A stretch of 60,299 nucleotides of DNA from a virus (lineage: Duplodnaviria; Caudoviricetes), in IMG/VR virus record IMGVR_UViG_3300022181_000098, positions 1 to 60,299 of that record, one strand, 5' to 3'. Below the pieces are notes generated by a model. That model saw only the letters and a list, made by a program, of their open reading frames with translations, ran no database searches and was not told the DNA's origin. This document shows, one piece after another, positions 1 through 24,600 of the stretch. Position 1 is the stretch's first letter. Every line of letters starts with the position of its first letter. Position numbers and translations under genes: made by a program.

Positions 1-38
<38 letters not shown>

Positions 39-557
39 ACTTTCCCCAATCATTTCAAAGATAATGGTACTCAGGAATCTACAGATAATCGACAGATAGA
101 CGTCTTTCCCGTCCGGTGATATCTATAAAGGACGTGCGCGCGTAGCAAGGGTCGTGCCAGAACGGTGTCGAGATACGATAGAATAAATTCAGGACCAATA
201 TTATACCACACATTCCGCCAAGTATTACAAGATGTTAAGAAAGAAGACAGTACATTGACTTTTGTCGGGAGGTTTGATATCATCAAAAAGTGGACTTCGA
301 TGCGGAGGCTTGAAAGATGATCATTTAAAGCGCCGACGGGATGGCGCCACGACACAAGTAAAAAAAGAGGGTCAATGGATGGCCTGGTAACCGTACCCAT
401 TGACCCTTACCCGTATCAGGGTAGGAAATCTTTGTTTTTTTATTGTCACATTTCCTGCCAATTTTTGTCAATACAATTCGAGAACGAAAACCAGGAACAA
501 CGTTCAAAGGGCCGTCTGAGAACAGTTCGGACGTGATTTGAATAAGGAGATTCCACT

Positions 558-1325
558 ATGCAATTGGAACTAGCGCTTATCCCGCATAAGGTAGAAAACA
601 AACTCGTCAATCAGCGTGCTGCAGATGGATACATAAATGCCACGGCGATGTGCAATGCCGTCGGCAAAAAGTTCGCGGATTACTCTCGATTGACGACCAC
701 AAGAGCTTTTCTAGTAGAACTTTCGAGGTCTATGGGAATTCCCATAGACCTCTTGGTACACACAGTATCATCGGGCTCCAATGAAAGCAGGGGTACTTGG
801 GTACACCCGGACGTGGCAATCAATCTGGGGCAATGGTGTTCTCCGAAGTTTGCAGTGGCCGTTTCTAAATGGGTTAGGGAATGGCTCACCAACACTATAG
901 CACCGACCAGTCTTCCGCCTCATATTCAGCGTTACATGATCAACCGCGCCGAGATCCCGCCCACTCATTTTTCGATGCTGAACGAGCTCACCTTCGCCCT
1001 GGTCGCTCCACTGGAGGCCGAGGGCTATGTTCTGCCCGAAAAGATGGTGCCAGACATTTCGACCGGCCGGATGTTCTCAAAGTGGCTTCGGGAGGTGAAG
1101 GAGCTCGATACTGACACTCTTCCTAGTTATCAACACCGATTCGCGGATGGAAGGGTCGTACAAGCAAGGCTCTACCCAAATCAGCTACTCGCAGATTTCA
1201 GAAGGTATTTTCACCTCGAATGGCTACCATATCACGCGGGTGAATATTTCTCAAAAAGGGATCAGAAGGCGATGCAGCACTTGCCGAAACTGCTTCCGAA
1301 CCCAAAAAGGAAGTTGGGCAGATGA
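558..1325 (+). CDS. KilA-N (APSES-like) DNA-binding domain protein
   Basis: QR-DGYINATAMC...GTWVHPDVAINLGQWCSPKFAV is the KilA-N signature; AAGGAG RBS upstream. Confidence 0.9.
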   Translation: MQLELALIPHKVENKLVNQRAADGYINATAMCNAVGKKFADYSRLTTTRAFLVELSRSMGIPIDLLVHTVSSGSNESRGTWVHPDVAINLGQWCSPKFAVAVSKWVREWLTNTIAPTSLPPHIQRYMINRAEIPPTHFSMLNELTFALVAPLEAEGYVLPEKMVPDISTGRMFSKWLREVKELDTDTLPSYQHRFADGRVVQARLYPNQLLADFRRYFHLEWLPYHAGEYFSKRDQKAMQHLPKLLPNPKRKLGR

Positions 1326-1331
1326 TTTCGT

Positions 1332-1353
1332 GGGGGTTCCTTCGGGAGCCCCC
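1332..1353. terminator. Hairpin terminator between convergent kilA-N and membrane-protein genes
   Basis: gggggttcc-ttcg-ggagccccc stem with UUCG loop just after the kilA-N stop. Confidence 0.65.
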
Positions 1354-1422
1354 ATCTCCTTCCCTCTTTGTCAATTATCGGCCGAGCTCTTGCGAGCATA
1401 AGGGGTGAGCCAAGCGGTGATC

Positions 1423-2079
1423 CTATGGCACCCGCCGCCCCGCTCGTAGGATCAAGAGCACCAGCCCGGCAAAGCTCGCCGCCAACCCGGGTATTAGGAA
1501 CCATTTCCACAGAACACTGCCGCCGCTTTGGTGGTGGTTGCTCTTAACCAAGAGTGAGTCGTAAAAATCACCCTCGCCGGTCAGTAACCTCATGATTTTG
1601 TATGTGCAGGAATACTGATGCAGCTCATTCTTCATGTCACGGTACTCCACGAGAATCTCCACTTCGTCATATTTCTCGTAACCCAATATCCTTTCCCTAG
1701 TCTTTTCAGCCTGCTCGTAGAAGAGAAGCCACGTCAGTTCCTGTTTTGGAAGAAAGACAAATTTCCTGCCCTTTTGTGTATCCTCGAGGTTGGTGGGAAT
1801 TCTCACTCTGTTTTGAACAGAGAACCATTTCCATGACACCGTTGTCTCCGTGGCAGGATAGTTCCCTGAATTCACCAGAATCGCGGCGAAGGACACGACA
1901 TCGACCTTAGCTCCCCCGGAGGGCACCGGGGTCACCTTAGGCTCGATGCCCTTAACCCCACATATTGGTTGATTCAATCTTTTCGTAAGGTCGACCTGGT
2001 ACCAGAAGTAAACCAAGTTCAAAAAGAGCACGATCGCTATGATTACTTGAATCCAGTCGCCTGCAGCCAGCTTCGACAT
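1423..2079 (-). CDS. Membrane protein (N- and C-terminal TM helices) directly downstream of the CRISPR array
   Basis: 218 aa; hydrophobic WIQVIIAIVLFLNLVYFWY and WFLIPGLAASFAGLVLLIL segments flank a beta-rich domain; ATG lies 8 nt after the GGAGG end of the last repeat. Confidence 0.8.
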   Translation of the reverse strand: MSKLAAGDWIQVIIAIVLFLNLVYFWYQVDLTKRLNQPICGVKGIEPKVTPVPSGGAKVDVVSFAAILVNSGNYPATETTVSWKWFSVQNRVRIPTNLEDTQKGRKFVFLPKQELTWLLFYEQAEKTRERILGYEKYDEVEILVEYRDMKNELHQYSCTYKIMRLLTGEGDFYDSLLVKSNHHQSGGSVLWKWFLIPGLAASFAGLVLLILRAGRRVP

Positions 2080-2087
2080 AAATTATG

Positions 2088-2647
2088 CCTCCAACCTGCA
2101 CATGCGCGCGGATTGCAACTTACCCTCGAGTTCTTAAACACTATGGTGATGGCCTCCAACCTGCACATGCGCGCGGATTGCAACACCGTTACGAATGCGA
2201 CATGGCGCGGGTTGAGAACCTCCAACCTGCACATGCGCGCGGATTGCAACCGGGAGGATGAAAAAATTTGTATTTTTTTTCTTCCTCCAACCTGCACATG
2301 CGCGCGGATTGCAACGCCTCTCTCACGCACGTTCATTCCTTCCCGGGTCCTCCAACCTGCACATGCGCGCGGATTGCAACACGGCATCAATCCGTTCCTG
2401 TGTGAGGTTCCCTTCCTCCAACCTGCACATGCGCGCGGATTGCAACGTGGCGCCGCGGGTATCATGATCATAGACGGTCACCCTCCAACCTGCACATGCG
2501 CGCGGATTGCAACCCATGATGATCGCCCAGGTGGACCCGACGGTCGTCCTCCAACCTGCACATGCGCGCGGATTGCAACGAGCGTCGCATCGAAGGTCTG
2601 CGTCCTCATGCTCATCCTCCAACCTGCACATGCGCGCGGATTGCAAC
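2088..2647 (-). CRISPR. CRISPR array: 9 identical 32-nt repeats (GTTGCAATCCGCGCGCATGTGCAGGTTGGAGG on - strand), 8 unique spacers of 33-36 nt
   Basis: Repeats start at 2088, 2153, 2219, 2284, 2349, 2415, 2482, 2548 and 2616; spacer lengths 33,34,33,33,34,35,34,36. Confidence 0.98.
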
Positions 2648-2814
2648 TGTCACGGTACAAACGGCTTGTCAAAGAACCGCTTCCTCCGCAGTTTCCGCGA
2701 ACCTAATGAAAATCAAGGCCTCACGGCCGCTGGTTGAAGGAACATCGCTTCTAGAGTTGCTCCACGCTTACATCGCGAACCTCTAAGCAATTTCCTGTTA
2801 GCTTCAGGTTCGCG
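2648..2814 (-). promoter_or_regulatory. CRISPR leader with triplicated CGCGAACCT motif
   Basis: CGCGAACCT at 2696-2704 and 2774-2782, inverted copy AGGTTCGCG at 2806-2814; TCTTTGACAA (- strand, 2666-2675) near the first repeat. Confidence 0.7.
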
Positions 2815-2995
2815 TTTATGCAGATCGTGTCCCGGACATGGCGGGACAGCTGTTCCCTTGAGGGAACTTGCGGATCCTAACCACCTGTACTTCATAACAG
2901 GCGACTGGTCCGGTTGGCCTCGCGAGCAGGCCAGCGATCGTTCTGAAACCGCCTGGGGCGGTATCGAAACAAACGCCTATGCCATACGGCATCAT
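2811..2995 (-). ncRNA. Putative tracrRNA of the Cas12f system
   Basis: About six hairpins (2829-47, 2852-67, 2882-2903, 2915-33, 2945-65, 2979-92) and 3' anti-repeat GAUCUGCAUAAACGCG (2811-2826) pairing 14/16 (three G:U) with repeat CGCGCAUGUGCAGGUU. Confidence 0.75.
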
Positions 2996-2997
2996 CT

Positions 2998-4335
2998 TCA
3001 TTGTATCGATTGCTCGATTATCTTGTCAATCCCAATAACGGATAAATTGCGTGCAGCATTTTTGTCGGCATGGTCCTCATGCTCACACGCTACACATTTG
3101 AAGTATGACTGTCCTCTCTTTGCCTTTGGCCTGTTTTCCGAATCGATATGGCCACATTCGTTGCATCTCTGCGAGGTATACTTCGGGTCAACCAATTTCA
3201 GGTCGACCCCAAGCTGTCTAGCCTGCCACTTGATAGCGTCTATCAGCATGCCAGCCGCCCAATTGCGGGCAAGCCAGGGCTTTCCTTCTTTGAGGTCGAT
3301 AAGCGACAGATTTTCCAGCTGCCACGTCCCGGCTCCATTCCTTTTGGCTTGGTCAGCGATAATTGCCGCTAGTTTCTGGCTAGCCGTTTTCATTATCCTT
3401 TGTTCCTGTTTTCTCAGCAGGCGCAGCTTCTTCGTCGCCGCGTCCCGTGACGGCCCTTGCAGGGGTGTATCCTTACGTTTGAGAGCGCGCAAGAGACGCG
3501 TTATTTCCCTTCTCACGATGCCCCTCGCGTTAATCATCGCCTTACCATTCCCTATAAGCATTGCCCATTTCTGGGCATCGCCATTATTCCGGATATGGAT
3601 GGCCGCAGGCGTGGCAAGACCCAAGTCGATACCCATAACTGTTTCTGGAGAGAGTGGCTTATAAGGGTCCGGCTCGTAGTTTATGGATAAGTGCATCAGG
3701 TATTTCCGACCGGCGCTCTTTTTGCTCCGTACAAGTTGACCCATGCCGTGTTTCCATTCACCTTCGAGGATCCGATGCAGCTGCAAATAACCCGACTGAT
3801 CTCTTTTCTTGAGATGTATCTCGAAAGCAATCCATGAGGGCAACCCTTCGCTCTTTGCCCACGAGTCAGCAAATAGGCTGTATAAGATATAGAACTTATT
3901 CCCTTCATCGATATGGAGCCTTACGGCCTCATGGTGAAAACATATAGGATGAGTGCCGTCTGATTTATGCGTCGGCAATACTGTGTCACCTCGTCCCATT
4001 AAGCGCTTGCCATGGTCACCGGCAAAATGTGCTTTTGCTAGATTGAAGGCCTGGTTTAAGACCCTACCGTTCAAATGCGTCTCCAAATCAAGCTTCTGCA
4101 AAATGGGCACATAACCGGTATTGAACCCGAGATCACCTAGGTTCACTTTCAGAATCTTACTGGTATACAAGAGATTTGTGGTAAAATTACAGAGACGAGC
4201 GAAGTCTCTGAATGACTGGAGGATCTCTTCATAGACCTTCTTCCTTTGTTCATCTTCGAGGGGAATCAGGGTTTTGGACCGTATATCGTAGCCCATAACC
4301 TTACCAAGGCCAAATGTCACCGTCTTGCTTAGCAT
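2998..4335 (-). CDS. cas12f: Miniature type V CRISPR effector, Cas12f (Cas14/C2c10-like, TnpB family)
   Basis: RuvC-I MGIDLG, RuvC-II WQLENL, Zn finger CNECGH...CVACEH, RuvC-III HADKNAARNL; ~445 aa; adjacent tracrRNA and array; no transposase. Start ATG 4335 (TTG 4341 alternative). Confidence 0.9.
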   Translation of the reverse strand: MLSKTVTFGLGKVMGYDIRSKTLIPLEDEQRKKVYEEILQSFRDFARLCNFTTNLLYTSKILKVNLGDLGFNTGYVPILQKLDLETHLNGRVLNQAFNLAKAHFAGDHGKRLMGRGDTVLPTHKSDGTHPICFHHEAVRLHIDEGNKFYILYSLFADSWAKSEGLPSWIAFEIHLKKRDQSGYLQLHRILEGEWKHGMGQLVRSKKSAGRKYLMHLSINYEPDPYKPLSPETVMGIDLGLATPAAIHIRNNGDAQKWAMLIGNGKAMINARGIVRREITRLLRALKRKDTPLQGPSRDAATKKLRLLRKQEQRIMKTASQKLAAIIADQAKRNGAGTWQLENLSLIDLKEGKPWLARNWAAGMLIDAIKWQARQLGVDLKLVDPKYTSQRCNECGHIDSENRPKAKRGQSYFKCVACEHEDHADKNAARNLSVIGIDKIIEQSIQ

Positions 4336-4379
4336 TGTCAACGCCCCAATATTCTGACATTTAAGCGGATATCCCGAAT

Positions 4380-4408
4380 ATCCTATAATTGTGATATGTA
4401 GTTGTCAA
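4380..4408 (-). promoter_or_regulatory. sigma70 promoter for cas12f
   Basis: TTGACA-17 nt-TAGGAT on - strand. Confidence 0.7.
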
Positions 4409-4471
4409 TTAATTGTTTGCAAACGCTTTCTGTTCCTAAAAATTGGTACGTGGATAATTGGTGACGTCTCG

Positions 4472-4750
4472 CTACTGAATTCTCATCCCCTCGATGCTCT
4501 GTTCCAGGCTTTTTTCCCTGTCATCCTGGAGCGCCTTGTTCTTGAGCAGGTTTTTCGCGTTCTCCGCATCCAGGCAGTAATCGCCGCCCGTCTTCTGCCA
4601 CCTGACCTGGTAGTAATCCGGCTTCGGAGGGAGATCAGGGATTACCGGCCGTACGTACTCCGTCCGGACCAGCGCCTTGTTTCCACATCCCGTTAAGCTC
4701 GTCAAGGATAGCATCACCGCTACCGCCAGCAACAGCGTTGTCCGTTTCAT
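4472..4750 (-). CDS. Outer-membrane spanin (Rz1-like lipoprotein)
   Basis: Signal peptide with LTGC lipobox, Pro-rich segment, overlaps 3' end of the i-spanin. Confidence 0.8.
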   Translation of the reverse strand: MKRTTLLLAVAVMLSLTSLTGCGNKALVRTEYVRPVIPDLPPKPDYYQVRWQKTGGDYCLDAENAKNLLKNKALQDDREKSLEQSIEGMRIQ

Positions 4751-5033
4751 TTATTACCCCCGTAGGTGTCAGGCCGTCGATATACTTCAGCCTCTTGATC
4801 GTCTGGTCCTTCGTCTCTATCCGGGCCGTGCAGGACTTGTTAAGATTTTCGGCCTCTTTCTTTAACTCAGCGATCGTTGTTAAATTCGTCGTGTTCGCAT
4901 CCTTCGCCGCCTGCAGTTCCACTTTGACCGCCTTCACTTGTTGCCCCCGTGCCCACCATACACCGGCGCCGGCGAGTATCATACCGACGAGAAGGCCTAT
5001 GACGCCGCCCTTGAGATAGTCTAAGAAGTTCAT
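4635..5033 (-). CDS. Inner-membrane spanin (Rz-like)
   Basis: N-terminal TM helix then coiled coil; follows the endolysin. Confidence 0.8.
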   Translation of the reverse strand: MNFLDYLKGGVIGLLVGMILAGAGVWWARGQQVKAVKVELQAAKDANTTNLTTIAELKKEAENLNKSCTARIETKDQTIKRLKYIDGLTPTGVINETDNAVAGGSGDAILDELNGMWKQGAGPDGVRTAGNP

Positions 5034-5629
5034 TTGTACTTCTCCCCCTTTTCAAAAATGAGGTACGGATACTCGATGTTGACCTTGCAGAAGTCAAGGA
5101 TGGAGCCACATTTCAGCTTGATCTTCTTCCTCGCGCACTGCTTCTCGATAAGGGTGATGTCGCAGGATCCGGCCCGAATGATCTCCTTATTAAGATTCCC
5201 TTGGCCGCCGTTGTACGAGCGAAAAGCGAAGTACCACCCTTCACACTTCGCGGTATCGTAAAGGTACCGATCGTAGAGGATAAGAGCCCGTATGTTCCAC
5301 CGCGGGTCATAGGGATTCATGGGGAACTCCTGGAGCGCGTTTTCTCGCCCATGGATCCACTCAGCCGTGGACGGCATGAACTGTCCAAGGCCCGCGCCGC
5401 CGTCGAAGGCCGTCGCACCCTCCCTGCACCGACTCTCCTGTTCGATTTGCCCCATGAAATAGTGATAGGGCGCATCGGCCCCGATGAACACCCTCGCCTC
5501 TCTGACTACCTGCCTCTTGTACTTCAGGCAGCGGTTGACGGTCTGCCCATCACAGTCCGAGGGTAAGACTGACAATAACAGAACCGAGAAGCAAACCACG
5601 AAAAATGAGAACCGCAATCCTGCCAACAT
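5030..5629 (-). CDS. Endolysin, SLT lytic transglycosylase with N-terminal hydrophobic segment
   Basis: QIEQES, GLGQFMPST, SYNGG motifs; probable start MLAG at 5629 after a GGAGG RBS. Confidence 0.88.
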   Translation of the reverse strand: MLAGLRFSFFVVCFSVLLLSVLPSDCDGQTVNRCLKYKRQVVREARVFIGADAPYHYFMGQIEQESRCREGATAFDGGAGLGQFMPSTAEWIHGRENALQEFPMNPYDPRWNIRALILYDRYLYDTAKCEGWYFAFRSYNGGQGNLNKEIIRAGSCDITLIEKQCARKKIKLKCGSILDFCKVNIEYPYLIFEKGEKYK

Positions 5630-6035
5630 CGGTAATCCTCCCTTCCTTTTCTTGCCGGTCGAACGTCCGCTTGTACCCGACAACCCATATCAGTTCTGCG
5701 AGGATGTAGCCCACACACACGAGACAGCACTTGTAGAACATGGCTTCGACCATGTTGGGTTTGAGAATCTGCATGAGCGCAAAGACCCCGGCAAGAGGGA
5801 CTCCAAGCCTCAAAAGGTACTTAATGACCGTACTCCCTGACACCGGGGATACCTGGATGCTGCCGGTCTTGTCCTTGACATATTCGACCCCTTCTTTTGC
5901 CTTCTCAGCCGCCTGGCCCCGGAGTTTCAGATAGACCTTGTTGAACCACTCCGCGAGCTTGGGATTGCGGACCGCGAAGAGTATCCCGACCAAAAAGAAA
6001 ACGATTGCTACGAAGATGTGTGTGAACCAGAGCAT
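5550..6035 (-). CDS. Putative holin
   Basis: Several TM helices; directly upstream of the endolysin. Confidence 0.65.
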   Translation of the reverse strand: MLWFTHIFVAIVFFLVGILFAVRNPKLAEWFNKVYLKLRGQAAEKAKEGVEYVKDKTGSIQVSPVSGSTVIKYLLRLGVPLAGVFALMQILKPNMVEAMFYKCCLVCVGYILAELIWVVGYKRTFDRQEKEGRITDVGRIAVLIFRGLLLGSVIVSLTLGL

Positions 6036-6216
6036 ATTAGCCCTCCTTTCTTGTGTCGATGTGCTTCAACAGGCACTTGCCGACCGTCTTCAGGAACCCG
6101 CACAGCTGCACGTTGTAACCCCTGGCGATGATATATAGGAATTCCAGACGTTCCGGCAAATCGGCCTTCTCCCAATCCCTGATCAGATTCTTGGTTTTAA
6201 CCTTCGCCCCATCGCG

Positions 6217-6528
6217 TCACCCCCTTTTGGTCGCGTTCTGCAGCAATAGTTGGTCCAGTTTGCTGTCCAAACCCTTCACATCGCTCTTTACTTCGTTGAC
6301 CGAAGACTCCACCTTGCTGACGCTGTCTTTTAATGACTTTATGAGGTTGTTCTGATTCTCCTGGCACTTCTCGCAGACATCCTTGAAAACGACATGCCTC
6401 TTGAGCTCCTCGTGACTTTGCTCCACCTTGTCAAGACGGGATTTGAACCCCAGGGCAGCAAGGATCGCGCCGAAAAGACCGCTGCCGATCCCCACCCCTC
6501 CCGTTATCAACGTCCTTTCGTCGATCAT
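6217..6528 (-). CDS. Membrane-anchored coiled-coil protein (lysis region)
   Basis: One N-terminal TM plus coiled coil; GGAGG RBS. Confidence 0.65.
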   Translation of the reverse strand: MIDERTLITGGVGIGSGLFGAILAALGFKSRLDKVEQSHEELKRHVVFKDVCEKCQENQNNLIKSLKDSVSKVESSVNEVKSDVKGLDSKLDQLLLQNATKRG

Positions 6529-6539
6529 TTGCCACCCTC

Positions 6540-7061
6540 CTATCTTTTCCCGTTGAGGTTTGCCCTGAGGGCGGTCTGATTCGTTCCTCCGTTCCGCACC
6601 CTCAGCCTGGCGTAGTAGGCAACAACACCCTCAGAGATCTTCGCAGGGGTTCCCGCGCTGACGTTCACCGTCGCCGTATAGTCCACGTTCTGCTTGTCGT
6701 TGCTGAAATCAACATACCCGGTGCAGGCCTGCGAAGCCGCTATGGACCCCATGAGGTCGCTGAAGTGGCTTACGTCTTTGAAACTGCCGATGTACTCCTC
6801 GTTGAGGACGACAGCTGATCCAGGGGATTCAGCCGTAACCGTCTCCTCGACTACGATCTTGTTGGCGCTCACGGTTACCGCAGTAAAGGTCCGGTTGTTC
6901 CCGGCCTGAGCGGCTCCTGAGATCGTGAACTTCTCGCCGGCCTCGACCGTTCCGGTCCCTATCCCGGTTGCACCGATGGAGTTGTCTGCAGTGGCGAAGG
7001 TGACGGCACTGCTGGAGAAAGACTTAAGAAGGTGGCTGTAGCTCTGGACCACTTCGATCAT
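6540..7061 (-). CDS. Hypothetical beta-rich protein, possibly structural
   Basis: 173-aa ORF with RBS, rich in small residues. Confidence 0.6.
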   Translation of the reverse strand: MIEVVQSYSHLLKSFSSSAVTFATADNSIGATGIGTGTVEAGEKFTISGAAQAGNNRTFTAVTVSANKIVVEETVTAESPGSAVVLNEEYIGSFKDVSHFSDLMGSIAASQACTGYVDFSNDKQNVDYTATVNVSAGTPAKISEGVVAYYARLRVRNGGTNQTALRANLNGKR

Positions 7062-7189: not shown

Positions 7190-10100
7190 TTACTGCAATT
7201 GCTGAAACCTCCTGCGCTCCGACTTCTTTGGCTTCTCCATGTTCCTGCCCTGATCCTTCAGATTCGAGTACTTCATGAAGGGCACTATCCCCGCAAGGCC
7301 AGCATCACGGATGGACTGATTGTACTCAGCTTGCTTCTTCATCAGCCTGGTCAGGGCGTTCGAATCGCGGTTCGGATCCGAGAAGTACGCTCTCGCCTCT
7401 TCGTATATGCCATTCCTTGTTTCCGTGAACCCTCTGACAACCTCGTCATGTTCCCGTTTGCGTTCCGTCATCACCGCCTGTTCGCTCGGCCGGAAACCCG
7501 CAGCTCTCAGACCTGCCTGCCCCGTGCTCAGTTTCAGGTGTCTGCCTGTCTGGTCGTTGAACAGGGGCCTGCCCTTCTCTGAGGTCACGCCCCGTGTATT
7601 CTCCCGCACGGCCCGGACAGGGTTTGCCAATCCGGTCGGGAGGACTTTTTCAACAGCCCTCGCCGGCTGACCGGTCATGAGATAGTGCAGGCTCTTCTCT
7701 GCGTCGTCGTAGATTCCCCCTACCGCCCCGGTGAGTTCCCACATGCTCTTCGGAACGCCGACGCCGATCGACAACGAGCCCGATATGTCTATCCCTGCCA
7801 GACCGGTGAGGCCGTGCCTCGCAACCAGCTCTGCCCTCTTACCAAGGTGCTGGCGAACGGAGTCGTAAACGTACTTCTCGGCGTCACCTTTCTTGAACCC
7901 GAAGAGCTTCAGGAAGAAGTTGATAATGCCCACCATGAGGTCTTTCAGCGGCCAGGCTGCACCGCCAGCCAGAACGATCGGAGAGGCAAAACCAAACAGG
8001 AAGGCCTTTACGTCGTGTTTCTTGAAACCGAGGTCATACATCATCTGCAGGTAGTTGTGGCTGAACTTTCCGTAGACGTACATGAGCTGCCCAACCTTGG
8101 CGGCCGGATTCCCTCCCTGGGCCCAAGACGGAAGGGTCGACCTTCCGTAGAGGCCATGAGCCTTGTTCGAGGCATCCAGGGCGAGATTGTAGGCTTCTTC
8201 CTCATTCTTGCCTGAGGCCCTGGCCAGTCGGTACCCGGCAAGCATGGTGCTCATCCTGTTCCACTGCTCTGTTTTGCCGAACATCCACATGGAGACAGTC
8301 ATCGCCTTTGACCAGAGGCGGCGGTGGATCTTGTCTATGCTGCCCATGGCGTCCCGGGTGAGCTGCGGATCGTCGTAACCTTCCCGCTGAATTCGATCGA
8401 TGAACGCCTGCTCGTCGGCATCCTTGAGCTTGCGTCCGGCCATGACCGTCGCAATATCGGCACCCGCTTGGCCCACTGCCGTCAGGATCCTTGTCATGCT
8501 GCCCTTTCCGCCCATGACATACTGATGGATGGCCGCCGGCGCCGTCGTCACCATGGCCGTCATATTGACCAGCATCGACCTGGGATTGAACCCGAGATAC
8601 TTGAAGGTCGCTATGCTCTTGGCCACGCCGACAATCCTGTCGGTGTGATCCAGGTTCCGGAGTTGCTCGGCAATATACCGCTCGGCCGTGACGTAGGCCC
8701 TGCTCTCCGCCCTGGGGTCGATACCTCCCTCCAGCTGGCCCTTCTCGTTCCTCTGACCCAAGAGCTGCTCCATGGCACGGTGTGCAACCTGTGCCTTGGA
8801 AAACCCGCCGGCCAGATTGTTCACGTACGTCGCAAACCTCTCGAGGGGATCCTCCATGTAGCCCCTGACGACACCCATCTCCTCCGGGGATCCGCGGTGG
8901 ATCATCGAGGAGCGGAAGCCGCGGGACTTGATCATGTTGGAGACCTGTTCGATTAGCTCATCATTGAACGTCACGGCGGCCTCCCCCTTCAGGCCGGCAG
9001 ATGCGTCCTTGATGGCGCGCGCCACATCCACTGCCTTAAGGTTCTGGTAAACGGACTCCGGAAGTTTTGATATCTCGGTGACCCCGACGTCCGTCCAGCC
9101 TTCCTTTCTGAGCCTGTCGGCCAGGCGCTCCGCCGCGTACTTGTTCCTGTGTTCGCGGTACCGTTCTGTCTTGCCTCCGACCACCTTCTCCGCCTGCACC
9201 GCCCAGCTGGCGCGCTCCCTGAGCCGTGGAGCGTAAAAGCCGCGCCACTCCTGCATGGATGCCAGGGCGAACCGGAGTTCTTTCAGGGTAGTCTTGGTCT
9301 GTGCGCTGAGTTCGCCCTCTTCCATCTGGGCGACGAGGGCTCGGAGCTGTGAAGTCATCATGTCGAGAGCCTTGTCGTAGCTGGCACGGTGGAGCTTCCA
9401 CACCCTGATGGCCTCGTCGGATACCCCTCTCTTCTCCCGGAGATAGGTTTCGTACTTCTTCACCTGGTTCGCCACGACAGCCGCCCGTGCCTCTTCTGAT
9501 ATGTCCGGATCCCTCAGGCGCTCCATGCTGGCGTCGCCGCGCTTCCATTTCGTGTCGCCGTAGTCGATGGCAAAGAGAAGCTCTCGGTAGGCCTGTGGGT
9601 TCTCCTTCCTGAGTCTGTCCGTCTCCTCAATGACTGATTCCCCGTCCACGGTGACCAGATCCACCAGGGTCGTGTGGTAAAGGCGCTCACGGTCCATGGT
9701 GAAGAGGCGGACGATGTTCTTGAAAACAGGGTGCGAGTACCACTCCGGACTCTTCAGAACGTTCTCAAGGAAAGAGTTGTGGGGCATCCTCCCGGGCATC
9801 ACCGTCGCTATTGTTCGAAAGATCGCCGCCGTCTCGCGGTTCAGCCAGCTCCCCGTCTTCTTGTCGCTGTCATCTTTCGGATCCGGGATCTCCTTCGTCG
9901 GTTCCCCGAGGGGCTCAGTGCTCCTGTTGTTGCGATCGATGGCGCCGAAAACACCCTGGAGCTTTCTTGCCAGTTCTGGATTCTTGCTGGAGAGGTTGAT
10001 CAGGAAGGGGTCCGGTTCCGGTGATGCTTCCCTTCGGAAAGAGATATCCTTCCGCCCTTTCTTGACATTCCGCAGTTCCTCTGCTACCTTTTCTCTAAGG

Positions 10101-13100
10101 GAGGCAACCACTTCTGACAGGCTACCGGATGTCAGTTGTGCGTAGTCTCTGGGGTTGTAAGATTCCCCTTTGACACCCTCCTCTTTCTTTTTGAACCCCG
10201 TCAGAAGCCACGTTTCCTTCTTCGTGAATCTCGACTTCGACAGAATGGCAACATAGTCACCGTACTCTATATCGGCCCGGCCGATCTCACCGCCGTATTC
10301 CCGGGTCTTCGTCCCCAGGGCCACCGCCTTGATGACTCCGACGAGGTCCCCGGCGATATCGTCAGAACCTTCGAATGCCCTCTGGGCGACGATGTGAAGA
10401 AGGCCGCCTTCATCCTTCTCTTTTCCTCCGTAATACAAGGTGACGTCACCGAGATCGGGATTCCTGAGGGCTGCCGGCATATCCTTCTTGCCCTCCATGG
10501 CGGACAGCAGAGCATTCAGGCCCCTCTCTTCTTCTTCGATCTTGTGAAGGTCGTTCGATGATTCCTTGCGGAAAGATATACCTCCCCCAATCGACGGGCC
10601 TTCACCGAATTTCGGCTTGACAATGTCGGCTTCTGAGTGTATTTTGTATTTAAGGTTCTTGATGGTCTCCTCCAGGGGCAATTGTAGCCTGGCGGATGTG
10701 GACCATCTAAGAGCCTTTTCTTTGTCCATGTAGACAAGATTGCCTGCCTTGATCTGATCAATAAACCACTCCGGTTTTCCTGTCAGCGCATTATTCTCGC
10801 GGCCGTATATGCTCGTTATCTTGTTAACGTGAGCTCCAATGGTACCTACAGGAAAATTGAGTTTCACCGGAACTATGACCCACCTGCCTTGATTGTCCTG
10901 GGCCTCCGTCATCACGACGAAGCTGTCGGGTTCGGTTGCTGACTTAAGAACCATTATCGGGGCAGTGAGTGCTATCGGGAGCTGTTCGATGAGGTCTCTG
11001 GTAAGGCTGTGTCTGGGGCCGATGGCTTTTGTGAGGGTATCTGCAGTAATAGCCATGGGCAGGTCTTTCATTCCTATACGGTGGAGGCGCAACACCTGGG
11101 GTGTATTCATCATGACAGGAAGGTACTGACCCTTTAGGGTATGGTTGAAATAGTCGGACAGGACACCCTTCCATCTTTTCATTTCCTCGGTGATCCGTTT
11201 GCCTATTCTCAGGGCTGTCTGATCTGGACCGGTGGACATGTCCTTCTTAAAGCTGACCTGCCCATCTCCATCGCTTCTTTTCAACCCCTTCGCGCCTTCC
11301 GAATACTCCCACCCCTTCCGGATCAGATTCTTGATATCCGTATCCGTCCACTTCAGGCGGAAGTTGAGCCGTCTCAGGGCGTCCCGGATGACTCCGATGA
11401 TCCTCTGCATGACCGTGGGCTTTTCCCCGGACTCCGCCATGTGGGCTATGAGTTCACGCCCGGCGACGTACCTGTGGACCCTGTCGGCAAGGTCAAGGTC
11501 GTAGTCTTTCACGATCCTGTTCAGCCGGTCCGTGCCCTCGTACGCATCGACGGCCGCCTGCATGACCTTGACTTGCTCGTCCTCGTTGAGCACAGCCTCG
11601 ACTCCCCTGTGTCCGATGACCTCGTGAATGAGGATGGCATGGGCGTTGCGAATGTCCTTGACGGAGTCGGCGACGATGTAGGTGGTGTCCGTGGTCCGGT
11701 CGTAGGCTCCGTACACGGTATCCTGATCGGAAAGCTCGTAGGCGTCGACCCCGGGGATCTCAGCGACAGACTGGACGACCTTCACCTCGCCGATGTTCTT
11801 GAGCTTCCTGAGGAGGGGTTCGAGAAAGCCCTCGACCTTCTCGACGGTGTGTCTGGGACGAGCGGCGGGTTCAATGACGGAGGAGGAGTCGGACTGACGG
11901 GTGAAAGAGATCCGGTCGTCTTCGGGGTTCCATGTGCCACGGTTGTAGACGGATTTGATCTGGGTAGGGGAGAATGCAATATACGAGTCTCCTGGACCTT
12001 CTGCCGTCGTATTGCTGTAGACTATTCCGTCGTAGCCTTTTCGGCGGATCGCATCTTCCCAATCCTGCAAAGTTCCGCCACTCAGTCGCTCCAGTTCCGC
12101 TCTGTCGAAGATATCGGGCGGATTGACTACGCCCATTATGTCAGGGCGGATGAAACCGGTATCATGCATCCTGAGGGGATTTCTTATGTTGAGATAGACG
12201 GGGATTGTATTACCGCCCGGTCCCCACTCATCTGCTATAACGTTTGCCTGCTGCCTGGTTCCAAAATGGGACCACGGCCTGAATGACTCAAAGGCACTCG
12301 ATGTTCCATGATACACCACCAACGGTTCCCCGTTTTCATCCACGACCCTGGAGGGTACATATTTAAGATCTTCCTTCTTGAAAGCGGTCAGGAGGTGCGC
12401 TATACTTACCTTAGAGCTTGCTGCAGGCCGACTACCCAACGTCTCATTTTGAGAAGCGGTACCGGAGATACCGGCAAGCTCTTCGACTTTCAAGGCCTCG
12501 TGATCGTAAAACTTCTTCCCCATATCAACATATTCCTTGACCGTCAGTTTTACGGCGAACATTTGCCCGTCGATACGTAGAGGCGCGACAAAGGTATGCA
12601 CATACGGAATGTCGGGATTGGGAGGCCTGTGCTCATTCGTGGCGATCTTGTCCGCCCTCCTGATGAGGTCCACCATCGCGGGCACAGAATAGACCTGTTC
12701 CTTGCCTTTGTGTTGAAAACCGTGTTTTACCTGCTTAGGTTTCAACTGAATATCAAACCCGGTCCTCTCATTCAGGATGATATCCGTGTCGAGGCCATCG
12801 ATGAGCCTTTTCAGGTATTCCGTAGCGTTTTTACGTGCTTCCTTGGGATTGGTCCCCGATATCTCGTTGCCTGCGAGTTCCGTCACTTCGATGTCGGGAT
12901 GGGCGACGACCTCCCAGTCCCCAAACCACCGCTTGAATTCCGGGGTCCTGGTTTGTGCCTCTCGTGCTCTTTCCTTTTTGAATAACAGTACACCTCTGTC
13001 CGTCTCCTTTGATTCGATAGTGCTGAACAGGTTGTCGAAGGCCTCTGCCACAGGAACTATTTCTTCAGGCAACAGATATGGGTATCTTTCCTCACTGCGC

Positions 13101-16100
13101 GGGAAATTCTCTACATCTCGCACGTTAGCCAAATAGTCGTTATGGTATCCACCCTGCATCATCTTATTGATGACGTAGTTCTCAAAAGCACGGGCGGCCC
13201 GTTCAAGAATACGGCTCCAGTAACCTGATTGTGCCTTATCAATAAGGCGTGAGCGTTCTGCCATGGGCGACGCATCCAGCGTTGCGACCAGTTCTGCAAA
13301 CACCTTTTCCACTTCAGGGCGGACGCCTTGAGGGTGTTTAGGGTCTTTTTGCCAGTTGTCGGGATTGAGATATTCGGACGTAGGGTGATCCCTGTGAAGC
13401 TGTTCAAGACGGGCTTTTGCGGTCGGTGTGCTTCTCTCGGTCTTATGAACATAGAGGGGTTCAGGATGGTATGTAATAAAGTTCTTTGCCCGGTACGCCT
13501 CATCGGCACCGAATCCCCGTTTGACCTTCACTTCGCCGCTACGCATACGGGAAAAGTAATTGTCGAGGGCATGAAACCATTCGTGCGCGAGACTCCCGGC
13601 GCCCCGGGGCTTTGTCAGATTGATGACAAGCCTGTCGGGCTCAAAGTGTGCCGAGGCCCATCCGCTGCCCCGTGAACCGAAAGCAAGACCGAGAGACCCG
13701 TTAAGGGATATGGCTTTCGGCTGGATACCGATAATCTCAGCAAGGTCCATCAGCGCATCATAAGCCTGATTTAGCATACCTTGCCGCTCTTTGCTCCCAG
13801 TCCCCTGGCCGACCCAGTTCCCAAACTCTACACCGCGGAAGCCAAAGGTGTCGCCGAATTGTTCGGGTGTAACGTCCTTTCCGCCACGCCGATCGACCGC
13901 TGTCCGAGGGCGGTTTGTCTCTGCCCGCACATCGGTCTCTTTTACGTTGTCCTTCTCCTTAACCGCTTCCCAGGCGGCCACGAGGTCATTGTAGTTCTCC
14001 TTCATATATGCCCTGGCATCTTTGATGTCAGAGAAGGTCTTGAGTTTCCGGTATTCCCTGTCCCCCTTCTTGTTGATGAAATACTCACCGCTCCTGGGAA
14101 TTGTCCGGATCTCAAACCGCATCTTCTTTTCGGACGCGGGACCGGCCAGCAGGTCTTCTACCCCGGGCAGTGCATCGGCTATCTTCCTTGCACCTCTGAA
14201 CTCATGCCATCTCCCGTCAATTTCAACACGGGTGAAGGGACTTTCGACCTTCTTGCCTTCTTTGTCGTAGTAATATGCCTTTGGAAACGCCTCCACGTGC
14301 CCGATACGCTGCCACTGGTCACGATCGATGGATGCGAGCAGCTCAACCTTGTCTCCGAAGGAATTCAATATAGGGCGTCCCCGTAATCTCCGCATGAGTT
14401 CTTTGGGGTCAATCTCAACGTCCAAAATCTCCTTTGCCAGAGTCCGCATGGATTTAACCTTCTCCACCCATGCCTTCACTTTGTAGCCCACGCGTGGTTT
14501 CGCGGGTATTACACTCCGGGCCGCATATGCCCATGCAGCGGGGAATTTATCGTCTATGGCATTTATCTCATCGGCAGGCCATATCTTGTTGAGGGGTTGT
14601 GTGGCTATATCGTCATCGGTAAGGTCCCTTGACAGCGACGGGGCCTGATCCTTCCTTGCCCCCCCTATCTTCTCGCCGAAGTCTTCGATCCTGCCGGGTT
14701 CGGTAGAGGTTTTTTCTTTCTTCCCCTCCTCCTCATGTTCCCTCTTCGCCTTCTCCCCTGATAACCTCTCTTTCAGCTCGTCGACGTCCTGCTTCTCCAC
14801 GTCGAACATACGCTCGCCCTTCTTCTCGGCAACCTTCATCGTCTTCTGTTCATGGGGTTGGTTGCCGGACAGGGAAAACATGCCGGAGGTGTCGAACAAT
14901 TCCCCGCCAGTTTCTTCTCCCTGGGGGGCCTGTGCTCGTTTCTCGTCTTCGGCAGGGGTAAGGGCCGTCCCTTCTTCCGAGGGTTCAGCAGGACGCAATT
15001 CGTAGGGTGTTTCGGTGGGTTCTTCTACTTCTGAGACGAAGACGTCGTCGTCGCGGGTTTCATCTCCACGAGCTCGTGCCTCTTCAGCATCCCGATCAGT
15101 TTCTTCAGGCCGAGTATCTTCTCGTGTCGCGTCTTGATACGATCTAACAACATCTTCGATTTGGGACTCATCTGCACCATGGCGCTCTAAATCCTCCCTC
15201 AGTTCAAGTATATCATCCTTTTGCTCGGTAATAGCAACATTAAGTTCGCTCTGCATCTGATTGACCGTGGTCTTCTGCCCCCTGGCCGCCGCCTGGAGGA
15301 GTGACAGCACGTAGTTGTCGCTCGGTATGGTGTCGGGACCGGGCAGGATATCTCCCTTGCTCACAAGCTCCGTCGCGATATCGTCGAGGCTCCGACCGTT
15401 CTTCCGGAAGATGAAGGAAAGGCCGTGCTGCTGGAAATCCTCCTTCACGTTGAAGCCAGCCGCCTTGACCTTCGCAGCCGACAATCCCCCCATGTCGATG
15501 ACGACCCTGATGAGGGATTTCGCTGGTTTCGTCTTGATGGGTTCCGAGGCTTTCCTATCAACGGCCGCTTCCTCCTGTGGCTGCTGCCCCATCGGGAAGA
15601 AGCCCGGCTCGATGCCTTCCTGCGGTTTGACGAGGCGAGCCCCCCACAGACGCTCATGCGTCGGGAAGATAGGGTACAGGCCACCGCCCCGTTCGTTCGT
15701 GAAGTCCTCGACGAGAGGGATGACGTCTCCCTGGGGGGTGACATATGCCCTGTTCACCCTGAACCGCGCCGTATGGGGGCCCCGGACCGGGTGTGCCTTG
15801 ATATCGAATTCGTAGAAGTCGCCTGGCTCGGGGATCCCTGACGACTCCACCTGTTCCTCGGGAACCGTTCTTTTCAGTCTGGCTTTCTTCAGCCATGCCT
15901 TGAAACCGTCCATCGACATGGGCACCATATTCCCGAGGCCTTTCCATCCCGGCTCGTAGTTGGCAAGGTAGCCGGCTCGTGCTTCCTCGATGTTGTCATA
16001 TCCGACCATGGCCTTGTGCTCGTCGAACCTCCCGGTCTTCGGGTCCACCTGGTCGACCACGAACACTCGCTGACTCGTCGGGTTGTCGCCGATGAAGACG

Positions 16101-21678: not shown

Positions 21679-24600
21679 TCAGTTCGTCAGCTTCTCGTAC
21701 TGCTGGCTATAGACATACGCGAGGGCCAGCGGCTCGAACCCCGTTACCTCGTCGTTCGTCGTCATTTCGAACAGCCCTGAATGGAAAACACCCACCTTCG
21801 AGTTTATGGGCTCCACGATTGTCGCCACACGCCTGTTGGTCACCGCCGGGATAAGCGTAAAGTTTGTGCCAACCGGATCGGTATCGACATAGTGCGTGTA
21901 AGTGATATTGTTCGAAGTAATGCTCTTCTTCGTGGTGACGAGTTCGATCCTCTCGACTCTCGTCTCCATGGTGAAATCATTCTCCGATAAAACAAGGTCT
22001 CCGAGCTCTAACCGGTGTACAATGCCATTGCCGTCAAAGCTGGTGCCGTTCTCAAGGCGCATCATGTAGCCGCTGTCGATGAAGCCGTAGTTCCATTTGT
22101 TACCATGAACATCCCGAACCTCAGCCCCCGCGGCCAGATGCTTCCCGGGGCCACGGTCGATGAGGTACCATTTCCACCTCTTCAGGTCGAAAACCAGTTC
22201 CGTATTGGTGCCCGTCGCCGCGGCTCCGCTTGCGACATGCAGGTGATACTCCATCTTCGTCTGGTCGAGATCCGCCCACGATTCTCCGATCAGTTCCGGC
22301 TTGATATACGCCGTCTTCCTGGGGTCGAAGTAGTTTTCAATGTCACCGTGGATCGGAAGGGGAGCCCTGCCGTCGGAAACGTAGACGCCGTCCGATCCTT
22401 GCCAGATGATGACGTTGCGGCTGAGGCCCTGGGGGATGTCTCCGGGAAGGCTCACTGTCTTCAGCGTCGACGGCGCTGGGCATCCTACCTTGTCGCTGAC
22501 CTGGTGACGAACCCACTGCGGGAAATCTCCGCTGAGCTTCCACATCTCGCCGTGTTTGAAGAAGATGATCAGGTTGTAGAGGTTATAACCGTACAGGTTG
22601 TAGAGCGACGCTCCACAGGTGAGCTCGCCGGTCTCGCCAAACTCGATCTCCGTGGAGTTCGCTCCGTTGAAGATCTGCGCGGTCTGGTATTCACTGTGGA
22701 TCGCGGCGTTCTTCTTGCCGGCCATGTCGCAGCAGAGGAAAAGCATATCCTGGGCCATGAGCGGGAACTTGTACTGTCCGAACTGTCTCTGCACGGGGAT
22801 CCCGCTCACGTAGAAGAGCTGGACGTCATTACTGAGAGTCTGGGAGAATGTGATTTCGTAGTGGTACCTCGGGGTCACCTTAGAAACCCTGGACATGAAC
22901 TCCATCGAAATAGCTGGTGGGTTCCAGGTAACGGTACCACTCTTCGACATGGACACCTCCCCGCCTGACGTCCCATCATCGATGGTGCCGACGGTGATGA
23001 AGTTCTGGCCGTCCGAGGAATACCTGACCGTCATAACCGTGTTCGCCGTGGTGTTGACGTGCCCGCCAGCAATCCCGAAGTTGATGCCCATGAGGCGCTC
23101 GTAACTAGCAAAATACAGTTTGTTGGTTCCCGCAGCGAGACTGTCGATCTCCACAAAAGTGGCAACATCCGTCGAGTCATACTCGTTGGCGTACACGTTC
23201 AGGGTGTAATCGTTATAGGTGTTGTCCTTGTAGATGTAGAAGGCCATGCATTCGCGGTCCGTCCCGTCCCACAGGTCGATGATGGGCTGGATAGGCGTTC
23301 TGACCGTGGCATGATACACCGTGGTGGCAGGGTCAATGCCGGTGAAGGTAAGGCGATAAACGTAGCCTACCAGACCGTTGTACATGCGGGGCCTGGCCGC
23401 ATTCACCGTATTCCCGAAGGAAATAACTCCTGTCTGACCGAGGCTTTTTGTCCCCCCTTCCGCGGCCGTCCCGTCGAAGAGCGCCCCGCCTGCAGGGCCC
23501 AGGTTGTCAATATAGAAGGTGTTGGCGGCATCGGCGTTCACAATGGTGATCCGCACCTGGTCGATGGCGTTCTTGTTCGCTGCCGACACTCCGGAGATGT
23601 CCCATATCACATTATCAAAGACGTCCGGCACTGCGATATTGGGGGTCAGCTCGGTCCACGTGCCCCCGCTGTCGTGAATTGCGAGTTTGATATTGCTTCC
23701 CGTTCTCGATGACCGGATGTCGAAGGCAATCGTATCGACGCCGGTCAGGTCCACCGGGCTGGTAATGGTGCGCGTCAGGGTCTTATTCAGGCTCGTCGTC
23801 GGCGCCGCAACTGCTTTGAGCGAGAAACCGCCCTGCGTTGTAAGTACCGCCTCCGAATATGACTGGAGGCTGAGCGATGGGCCACTGGCGTAAAAGTTGT
23901 CGATGGTGAAGATGTTGGCAACCGAAGCGTTGTCGACGGTCACGCGAATCCGGTCAATGGCATCTTTATCGGCATCGGCAACCCCCGAGATGTCCCAGAC
24001 CACTGTCTGGAACTGGTCCGCATTGAGGATATTGGGAGAGATCGATGTCCAGGTACCCCCGCTGTCGTGAATAGCAACAGACAGATTGATACCGGGCCTC
24101 GATGCCTTGATGTCGAAGCAGAGCGTTTCGACGCCGGAGAGATCGATCGGGGGATCCAGTGTCTTCGTGAGTGTCGCGTCGATGGCGGAGGTAGTCGCTA
24201 CGCCCTGCAGCGCATGCGATCCCTGGGTCTTTATTGTATCGGAGAAGGCCTGAAGGGTCCTCTCTGAACTGCCATACCAGTTGTCAATATAGAAGGTGTT
24301 GGCGGCATCGGCGTTCACAATGGTGATGATGATGCTATCGATGTTGTTCTTATCGGCATCGGCAACCCCCGAGATGTCCCAGACCACTGTCTGGAAAACA
24401 TCCGCAGAGCCTACGTTTGGTGTTATCTCCAGGGTCGCTCCACCCGACTGATGAAGACCGACTTTGATGTTACTGCCGGTTCTGGATGACCGGATTCTGA
24501 ATGTGAGGGTACCCATGCCCGTCAGGTTGAGAGTCGGGCTTAGTGTGCGCGTCAGCGTTTTGTTGAGCGCGTCTGTTGTAGAAATGGCCTTGAGAGCATA

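Follow-up and report, generated by a model that had tools for sequence, protein, structure and literature searches.

The provirus IMGVR_UViG_3300022181_000098 of IMG/VR (60,299 bp, estimated completeness 81%), whose full length is called the window below, carries a small CRISPR-Cas12f system (CRISPR, short palindromic repeats that are clustered and regularly interspaced) with an array that ends 8 nt before the start of a gene for a putative membrane protein. Four features follow one another on the minus strand, namely the cas12f gene (2998..4341), a region for the trans-activating CRISPR RNA (tracrRNA; 2648..2997), the array (2088..2647) and the membrane-protein gene (1423..2079). Our subject is the junction between the last two, where the end of a CRISPR repeat could serve as a Shine-Dalgarno (SD) site.

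The array consists of nine identical 32-nt repeats, GTTGCAATCCGCGCGCATGTGCAGGTTGGAGG, and eight spacers of 33–36 nt. All copies (9/9) are free of mismatches and lie on the minus strand, running from 2647 to 2088 with start-to-start spacings of 65–68 nt; a pattern search gave no forward copies of GTTGCAATCCGCGCGCATGTGCAGGTTGGAGG and none of a reversed control pattern. Nine perfect repeats rule out chance, which could enter only in where the array stops with respect to the ATG.

The terminal repeat (2088..2119, minus strand) is intact, and its last five bases, GGAGG (2092 to 2088), form the putative SD site. Across the junction, the minus strand reads ...GCAGGTTGGAGG CATAATTT ATG TCG AAG, where CATAATTT is a linker of 8 nt (2080..2087, minus strand) between GGAGG and the ATG at 2079. 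An in-frame TAA two codons ahead of this ATG bars the reading frame from the repeat. These observations agree with an earlier note on this DNA, which had described a non-degenerate last repeat (the copy at 2119 to 2088 is exact), a GGAGG end 8 nt before the start of a 218-aa open reading frame (ORF) and the lack of a terminator after the array; a scan of the minus strand from 3000 to 1423 gave no terminator-like site. No special structure was found around the terminal repeat and start, the local RNA fold having −29.4 kcal/mol and z = +0.46, with 135 of 200 shuffles as good.

An intact last repeat followed by non-spacer sequence is the layout of an extraneous CRISPR RNA (crRNA), and the window array shows it; the linker CATAATTT would supply the first guide bases. 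The guide-like sequence past the last repeat is the ORF start by construction and is preceded by the repeat, not by a known protospacer-adjacent motif.

The gene at 1423..2079 (minus strand) encodes 218 aa with an N-terminal transmembrane (TM) segment, a conserved domain of ~160 aa with two conserved Cys and one C-terminal TM segment; a Kyte-Doolittle scan placed hydrophobic segments at about residues 5–23 and 193–211. A search of 5.8 billion proteins returned five homologues (55–65% identity) among 404 candidates, and in the alignment of the six sequences M1, D8, I10, Q11 and many later positions were invariant. Because the five homologues share the start, the ORF is evidently a real conserved gene and the ATG 8 nt past the repeat its true start. 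Among 1.84 billion representatives, a profile search put 63 proteins at E ≤ 0.001 and, within this set, 36 at E ≤ 1e-10; they form a modular family. The N-module (profile positions 1–185) comprises the TM segment and the ~160-aa domain with LNQPxC and YSCxY motifs, and it stands alone in proteins such as P0103 (187 aa). The C-terminal two-TM module (positions 189–255, ~66 aa) also exists as free-standing proteins of ~70 aa (P0126 and P0136–P0162 in the family set), whose size and topology presumably recall small holins. In the window protein the N-module is followed by the first TM segment of the C-module alone; the second TM segment of that module is lost, and the protein is without the last ~38 aa and the third TM segment of its closest homologues P0003–P0006. 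A tblastn comparison of P0003–P0006 with window 1–2300, aimed at any leftover of the lost C-terminus, yielded nothing beyond weak matches (best E 0.32).

The 218-aa protein had no family match in PADLOC, PHROGs, Pfam or NCBIfam, and a profile search of the PDB gave nothing (best E 0.89). The structural neighbours of its Atlas model (predicted template-modelling score, pTM, 0.66) are all "hypothetical" and TM-plus-beta-sandwich-like. Single-protein scans of viral contigs with P0001 and P0002 recovered no relatives, and the wider family profile recovered one viral record only, the related provirus L009 described below. The "two-TM protein" of the earlier note is borne out in its two hydrophobic segments, and its ORF is a conserved gene; its proposed identity as a membrane effector finds no match in the four family databases. 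A role in exclusion or abortive infection would be a guess from the position of the gene at the prophage end beside a BstA-like gene.

Cas12f, tracrRNA and the repeat end

The cas12f gene (type V-F, V-U3-like; 2998..4341, minus strand) encodes 447 aa from a TTG codon, or 445 aa from an ATG two codons on. Its product matched Cas12f1-like_TNB of Pfam (PF07282, 1.8e-17), Cas12u3 (2e-58) and Cas12f (6.6e-56) of PADLOC, guided_TnpB of NCBIfam (3.4e-36) and the solved Cas12f chains 8j3r (3.2e-37) and 7wju (1.2e-34). The features of type V-F, namely a small TnpB-like effector of about 400–550 aa (here 447 aa), an adjacent array and a tracrRNA anti-repeat, are all present. In an alignment of 40 homologues D239 was nearly invariant, and E343, D426 and four Cys were invariant; going by their motifs, we take D239/E343/D426 to be the RuvC triad and the four Cys to be the zinc ribbon. 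The predicted nuclease of the window looks active.

The array begins 350 nt past cas12f, and these 350 nt (2648..2997, minus strand) make up the tracrRNA region, the scaffold of which is conserved across the family and is met in RNA-library contigs of two metatranscriptome runs (X1 and X2). An alignment of 12 loci showed conserved hairpins in this region. The anti-repeat CGATCTGCAT (2818..2827, minus strand) pairs with repeat nt 19–28, up to the first G of GGAGG. Folding duplexes between the tracr regions and either half of the repeat gave noisy results, and an alignment-based pair count was used instead. In the 10-bp helix of the 12-locus alignment, 86.4% of the cells were paired and both-side changes occurred in seven of the ten pairs; none of 500 shuffles reached its covariation score, and only 24.5–39.1% of the cells were paired when the partners were slid by 1–3 columns. 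The helix holds eight G-U cells, which the opposite strand would turn into mismatches, and the RNA strand is therefore the minus strand of the window. Rfam at the gathering threshold gave no matches in the entire window, and no adaptation genes were found among the ORFs scanned in window 1–7061.

By every feature tested, the window system is best regarded as a genuine small type V-F (V-U3-like) CRISPR-Cas12f. It shares with known type V-F Cas12f (8j3r/8j12, 7wju) a small TnpB-derived effector with RuvC and zinc ribbon, a tracrRNA between the effector gene and the array, pairing of the 3′ part of the repeat with the anti-repeat, and units that run from repeat to spacer. In contrast to the solved Cas12f proteins, to which the similarity is only ~E 1e-35, the window system is provirus-borne and its array runs straight into a protein-coding gene.

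A further segment of the tracr region, CCTTCAACC/CCTCCAATC (window 2732–2740, minus strand; L014), is fully complementary, G-U included, to the repeat end GGTTGGAGG, the SD-like bases too. As a second anti-repeat, CCTTCAACC was set aside and not used as a family feature, being found only in the window and L014 and not conserved in the other 10 aligned loci.

Cas12f relatives were fetched from 4 viral, 34 metagenome and 18 genome loci. Equally placed arrays were found in 18 related loci besides the window, and most repeats end in GTTGGAGG, GTTGGGGG or GTTGGGAG. The exceptions are ATCAGAGG in L053 and L055 and AGTGAGGG in L010, a related G-rich motif. Since G-rich repeat ends are found family-wide, every repeat of every family array has an SD-like end. 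The last four repeat bases lie directly 3′ of the covarying anti-repeat helix. Being a conserved family repeat end beside that helix, GGAGG evidently belongs to the repeat and would not have been shaped for the membrane-protein gene. As a separate observation, L011 (1–147) and L026 have three tandem 49-nt units with GAGGTGGAGG upstream of a Cas12f homologue (41% identity), and no downstream array was detected there.

To count the layout itself, we used the 15 arrays, window included, with at least 300 nt of downstream flank. A long ORF starting 5–10 nt past the last repeat was present only in the window and in L018, and 13 of the 14 other arrays are without this layout. In L018 (2494–3602), an unrelated metagenome contig, a three-repeat array lies behind a Cas12f homologue of 49% identity, and its junction reads ...GGTTGGAGG CGGTCTAG ATG, with 8 nt and an in-frame TAG. 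The protein encoded downstream (356 aa) belongs to the URO-D family (Pfam 2.5e-25), and 2 nt are missing from the last repeat, in the GC-rich 5′ half. The earlier note had asked whether homologous cas12f loci have an ORF 6–9 nt past the last repeat; a long ORF at 5–10 nt exists in one of the 14 other arrays, and it is this enzyme gene.

The remaining arrays end in various ways. L048 has a 56-aa ORF at 6 nt, which has no family and is probably spurious, L010 has a 74-aa ORF 15 nt past the last repeat, and L055 has, by eye, a gene with its own AAGGAG ~65 nt downstream. In L021 and L029 the last repeat is degenerate, and there is a pseudo-spacer as well as a terminator of the hairpin-plus-T-run type; in L016 the array is followed by an opposite-strand gene. 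L052, from a metagenome-assembled genome labelled delta proteobacterium, is the closest among the genome-borne relatives (Cas12f identity 64%, >33 repeats), and its decayed last repeats are followed by a toxin-antitoxin-like pair. By eye, the region L052:9900–11000 holds a small antitoxin-like ORF ~50 nt past the array and then a MazF/PemK-like ORF. Overall, the last repeat is altered in 10 of the 15 family arrays and intact in the window, L016, L048, L050 and L055.

From 16 sequences we obtained a crude null, namely the chance of meeting, 5–10 nt downstream of a non-coding position picked at random, the start of a co-directional ORF of at least 150 aa. It gave p = 0.0053 per position and 0.003 for at least two such cases in 15, the window being the index case. 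The recurrence of the 8-nt layout in L018 is only suggestive.

Insertion of the cassette and its transcription

Along the spanin-like genes behind an SLT endolysin, the related provirus L009 shares 85% identity with the window. Past the spanin-like genes, it has a 138-nt intergenic stretch with AAAGGA 9 nt before an ATG, and then a homologous 256-aa gene. L009 has no array, and its record (41.8 kb, only 49% complete) gave no Cas12f match. The similarity between the window and L009 breaks off with a stop codon near 4472 and sets in again with the ATG at 2079; upstream of this ATG, the linker included, there is no nucleotide similarity to L009. Furthermore, the 130-nt stretch from 4471 to 4342 is without a counterpart in the cassette-free L009. 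Since the same gene lies in L009 behind the same lysis genes without CRISPR, the ~2.4-kb unit of promoter, cas12f, promoter, tracrRNA and array (~4471 to 2080) is evidently an insertion ahead of a pre-existing phage gene, the 5′ region of which it would have replaced.

L014, the closest Cas12f relative with DNA compared (81% identity), has an unrelated upstream flank (L014:1–335 against window 4330–4660), and the cassette thus occurs in different genomic contexts. The cas12f-tracr-array unit appears to move between such contexts. No transposase, integrase or flanking repeats were seen with the cassette in the comparison of the window and L014. Scans for tRNA genes gave none in the window and none in L009, and no attachment-site tRNA could be named; in the GC profile, the cassette was not clearly distinct. 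It is conceivable, if unlikely, that the junction is the scar of a spacer-protospacer recombination that brought the cassette into the phage, a process that Varble and colleagues are said to have described in 2019.

A consensus scan for sigma70 promoters found two candidates on the minus strand. The first, TTGACA-17-TAGGAT (4380..4408, 10/12), lies upstream of cas12f, within the 130-nt stretch that L009 lacks, and the second, TTGACA-18-TACAAT (3000..3029, 11/12), the best in 1–5200, overlaps the end of cas12f and likely drives the tracrRNA and the array. No sigma70-like promoter was found on the minus strand from 2997 to 2080, and the only terminator-like site of the consensus scan on this strand (4210..4190) lies inside cas12f. 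AGGAGG, AGGAG or GGAGG stands at positions −17 to −4 in 13 of 49 crude ORF calls of the window, with spacings of 4–10 nt, against 2.8% of random positions. Because the ORFs of this phage use GGAGG-type sites at 4–10 nt, GGAGG followed by 8 nt and ATG is predicted to be a strong and, for this phage, typical ribosome site.

Eight metatranscriptome runs hold 10–28% of the sampled words of 1300–4500, and the contigs of four of them (X1–X4) were placed on the window; the remaining four (X5–X8), with shares of 0.10–0.20, do not enter the analysis. The ORF body lies under RNA-library contigs in all four runs compared. Record 9 of X3 (230 nt) corresponds to 1882–2111, that is, 198 nt of the ORF and 32 nt upstream, 24 of which are in the terminal repeat; its end at 2111, 24 nt into the repeat, may reflect low cover only. 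Record 3 of X1 (2618–2969) leads from the tracr region into repeat 1, and record 6 of X2 (2550–2850) spans the 3′ part of the tracr region, repeat 1 together with spacer 1, and the greater part of repeat 2. The cas12f gene is covered by X4 at 3342–3509 only and the middle of the array (2156–2476) by no contig; repeats break assemblies, and such gaps carry no weight. Taken together, the contigs fit a transcript from the tracr promoter that enters the array, plus an RNA that holds the repeat and the ORF.

One X1 contig ends at 2969 with Illumina adapter letters attached. As a weak hint, this end may be the 5′ end of the tracrRNA, ~24 nt past the start predicted from 3029..3000 and just after the family-conserved CCGNATGG hairpin.

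Expression of the membrane-protein gene

In our view, the best reading, with a probability of about 0.6, is that the ORF is translated by read-through of the array from the GGAGG of the terminal repeat, which would have been captured as an SD site. A mobile module of ~2.4 kb would have entered a temperate phage between the lysis genes and an accessory membrane-protein gene, and the insertion would have removed the leader of the latter. The gene would then be the last cistron, read through from the tracrRNA/pre-crRNA transcript, and ribosomes would load at the GGAGG of the terminal repeat, 8 nt before the conserved ATG. In this scheme, GGAGG would be present for CRISPR reasons, as the repeat end flanking the anti-repeat helix, and would be co-opted afterwards; only junctions with a ribosome site at a working distance (GGAGG 5–10 nt from ATG) would keep the downstream gene expressed. 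The repeat-before-ATG layout thus looks like a by-product of the insertion site rather than a purpose-built switch, and the enzyme gene of L018 fits a generic outcome in which the repeat supplies the SD. We infer co-transcription, ribosome use of GGAGG and competition between Cas12f and ribosomes alike. The proposal of the earlier note that the gene is translated from the pre-crRNA is plausible in view of the conserved start, the lack of a separate promoter- or terminator-like site, the use of GGAGG by the phage and the X3 contig, the transcript and its translation being what we infer from them.

Cas12f-tracrRNA should be able to load on the last repeat, because this repeat is intact, and it would yield an extraneous crRNA with a guide made of the linker and the first ORF codons, beginning CAUAAUUU. 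Such loading would compete with ribosomes, and the occlusion proposed in the earlier note is therefore mechanistically sound, although it would be a side effect and not a demonstrated function. If the tracrRNA is co-transcribed with the nine repeats, the occupancy of the last repeat would be low, since one tracrRNA would serve nine repeats, and occlusion would be at most partial. The route of pre-crRNA cutting in V-F systems is not known to be settled, and the cutting of the mRNA proposed in the earlier note would be a conjecture.

Several points weigh against translation from the repeat. When the index case is excluded, at least one such layout in 14 has a probability of ~0.07 at p = 0.0053, and a higher one under looser nulls. 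The promoter scan used the sigma70 consensus, which may not suit the promoter types of the host. The Logan contigs are strandless and may include DNA, and a contig spanning two features shows no single transcript; moreover, those over the 3′ half of the ORF run into the convergent BstA-like gene, and part of them could be antisense read-through. Finally, the C-terminal loss means that the window copy could be decaying.

Host promoters that differ from the sigma70 consensus would favour a neutral juxtaposition, in which the gene uses its own unrecognised promoter and start signals, or read-through from the late lysis operon, and GGAGG contributes little. The tight packing of the cassette into a ~90% coding genome and the unremarkable local RNA fold (z = +0.46) would suit this explanation as well. 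However, the 8 nt between repeat and ATG leave no space for a further ribosome site, the signal that this phage itself prefers is GGAGG at 8 nt, the array has no promoter-like site on the minus strand, and an RNA-library contig reaches from the ORF 24 nt into the repeat, so we regard neutral juxtaposition as unlikely. It is very improbable that the ORF no longer yields a working protein and that the array end merely abuts a dying gene. Such decay could account for the loss of the last ~38 aa and of the third hydrophobic segment of P0003–P0006, and the family is rare (five homologues among 404 candidates), but the 218-aa frame is uninterrupted and keeps all conserved motifs of the N-module, members with the N-module only exist (e.g., P0103, 187 aa), and contigs cover the region in 4/4 RNA libraries compared.

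The earlier note had favoured a selected sensor or guard: Cas12f-tracrRNA at the terminal repeat would repress translation of the effector, and loss or inhibition of Cas12f or tracrRNA would derepress an exclusion or abortive-infection protein. The repeat would then moonlight as an SD, translation of the membrane protein would be inversely tied to Cas12f-tracrRNA occupancy as in a translational guard, and the spacing in L018 would come from selection for repeat-driven expression. We find this distinctly unlikely. The full integrity of the terminal repeat, whereas 10 of 15 family arrays have an altered one, the end of the anti-repeat helix at the first G of GGAGG, and the 8-nt spacing that recurs in L018 all speak for a sensor, as do the complementarity of CCTTCAACC/CCTCCAATC to GGTTGGAGG in the tracr regions of the window and L014 and the BstA-like abortive-infection gene next door. 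CreTA reportedly adds a precedent of CRISPR effectors restraining toxins. Yet conservation of the CCTTCAACC segment does not extend to the other 10 loci, a single tracrRNA per nine repeats would, if co-transcribed, leave the last repeat with low occupancy, the downstream gene of L018 is a URO-D-family enzyme, and the window protein is C-terminally shortened and finds no counterpart in PADLOC, PHROGs, Pfam or NCBIfam. The case for a dedicated coupling of the gene to the CRISPR state is further weakened by its presence without CRISPR in L009, by the absence of the layout from 13 of the 14 other arrays (it occurs in 1/14) and by the family-wide occurrence of the GGAGG-type end.

Translation from the repeat, if it takes place, would differ from known arrangements. 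Prophage accessory ("moron") genes are expressed from foreign promoters. The window gene, at the prophage end beside lysis and BstA-like genes, would likewise be expressed from whatever transcription enters, with the distinction that here the unit transcribed upstream of it is a CRISPR array and a CRISPR repeat the predicted ribosome site. For Cas12a, Liao et al. 2019 (PMC6610086) report that 11 of 14 native V-A terminal repeats are mutated and that, with spacers placed after repeats in type V arrays, an intact last repeat plus downstream sequence can yield a functional extraneous crRNA. The 10 of 15 altered last repeats of the present family resemble these V-A figures, whereas the last repeat of the window is intact and its "extra guide" would, by prediction, take in the region where ribosomes load and the opening codons of a real gene.

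In CreTA, a toxin promoter is reported to be repressed by type I Cascade, which receives its guidance from a degenerate ectopic repeat RNA (PMC9458426, PMC10097628, PMC8501985). The shared concept is a repeat-derived RNA element that ties a harmful product to the presence of a CRISPR effector; in the window, by contrast, control would sit at the ribosome site of an mRNA and would involve a type V-F effector and a putative "effector" protein. A pairing conserved with CRISPR, as in CreTA, was not found here, the gene being CRISPR-free in L009 and 13 of 14 arrays being without the layout. The report on dCas12f-sigmaE (PMC12259090) describes a nuclease-dead protein that works with an extracytoplasmic function (ECF) sigma factor, acts on DNA and has guide RNAs that control nearby genes. 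That protein is a Cas12f relative; unlike it, the window Cas12f retains the D/E/D positions that are conserved, and its multi-spacer array is an ordinary one. Compared with Cas12a extraneous crRNA, CreTA and dCas12f-sigmaE, the window system, if it acts at all, would act at the ribosome site of an mRNA. No description of a CRISPR repeat as an SD site was found in titles and the beginnings of abstracts, which is not proof of absence.

The layout of repeat and start codon is real, if slightly surprising, anatomy, and a function for it is plausible but incidental. If the reading from the repeat is true, CRISPR arrays can serve as 5′ leaders of protein-coding genes, and selection on a downstream gene, not immunity, can preserve an intact terminal repeat, which would be an added reason why some type V terminal repeats escape decay. 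It would also be a natural overlap of a guide-RNA scaffold and a ribosome site, usable as a Cas12f-responsive translational switch. If the layout is packing only, it is a curiosity. In addition, the locus documents a compact V-F (V-U3-like) cassette on a temperate phage, beside a BstA-like gene, that appears to move between contexts.

Spacers and neighbouring genes

Targets of the spacers were sought by blastn-short with the eight spacers and the pseudo-spacer against the masked window and all compared loci, and only matches of ≤19 nt were obtained. The whole array had no match among 50,697 phage records, and 24 nt of spacer 4 had none in the viral contigs. Spacer 6 (2251–2283, minus strand) is AT-rich, AAGAAAAAAAATACAAATTTTTTCATCCTCCCG, and its reverse complement, GGAGGATGAAAAAA..., looks like a ribosome site followed by the beginning of a target gene, for which the spacer searches gave no candidate.

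The BstA-like abortive-infection gene (558–1325, plus strand) has a KilA-N domain and matched PHROG 6287 (4.9e-58) and BstA of PADLOC (2.1e-18). At the prophage end, this gene and the membrane-protein gene converge. Farther into the provirus, the structural region contains very long ORFs at 7190–18493 (minus strand, 3767 aa) and 21679–26736 (minus strand, 1685 aa).

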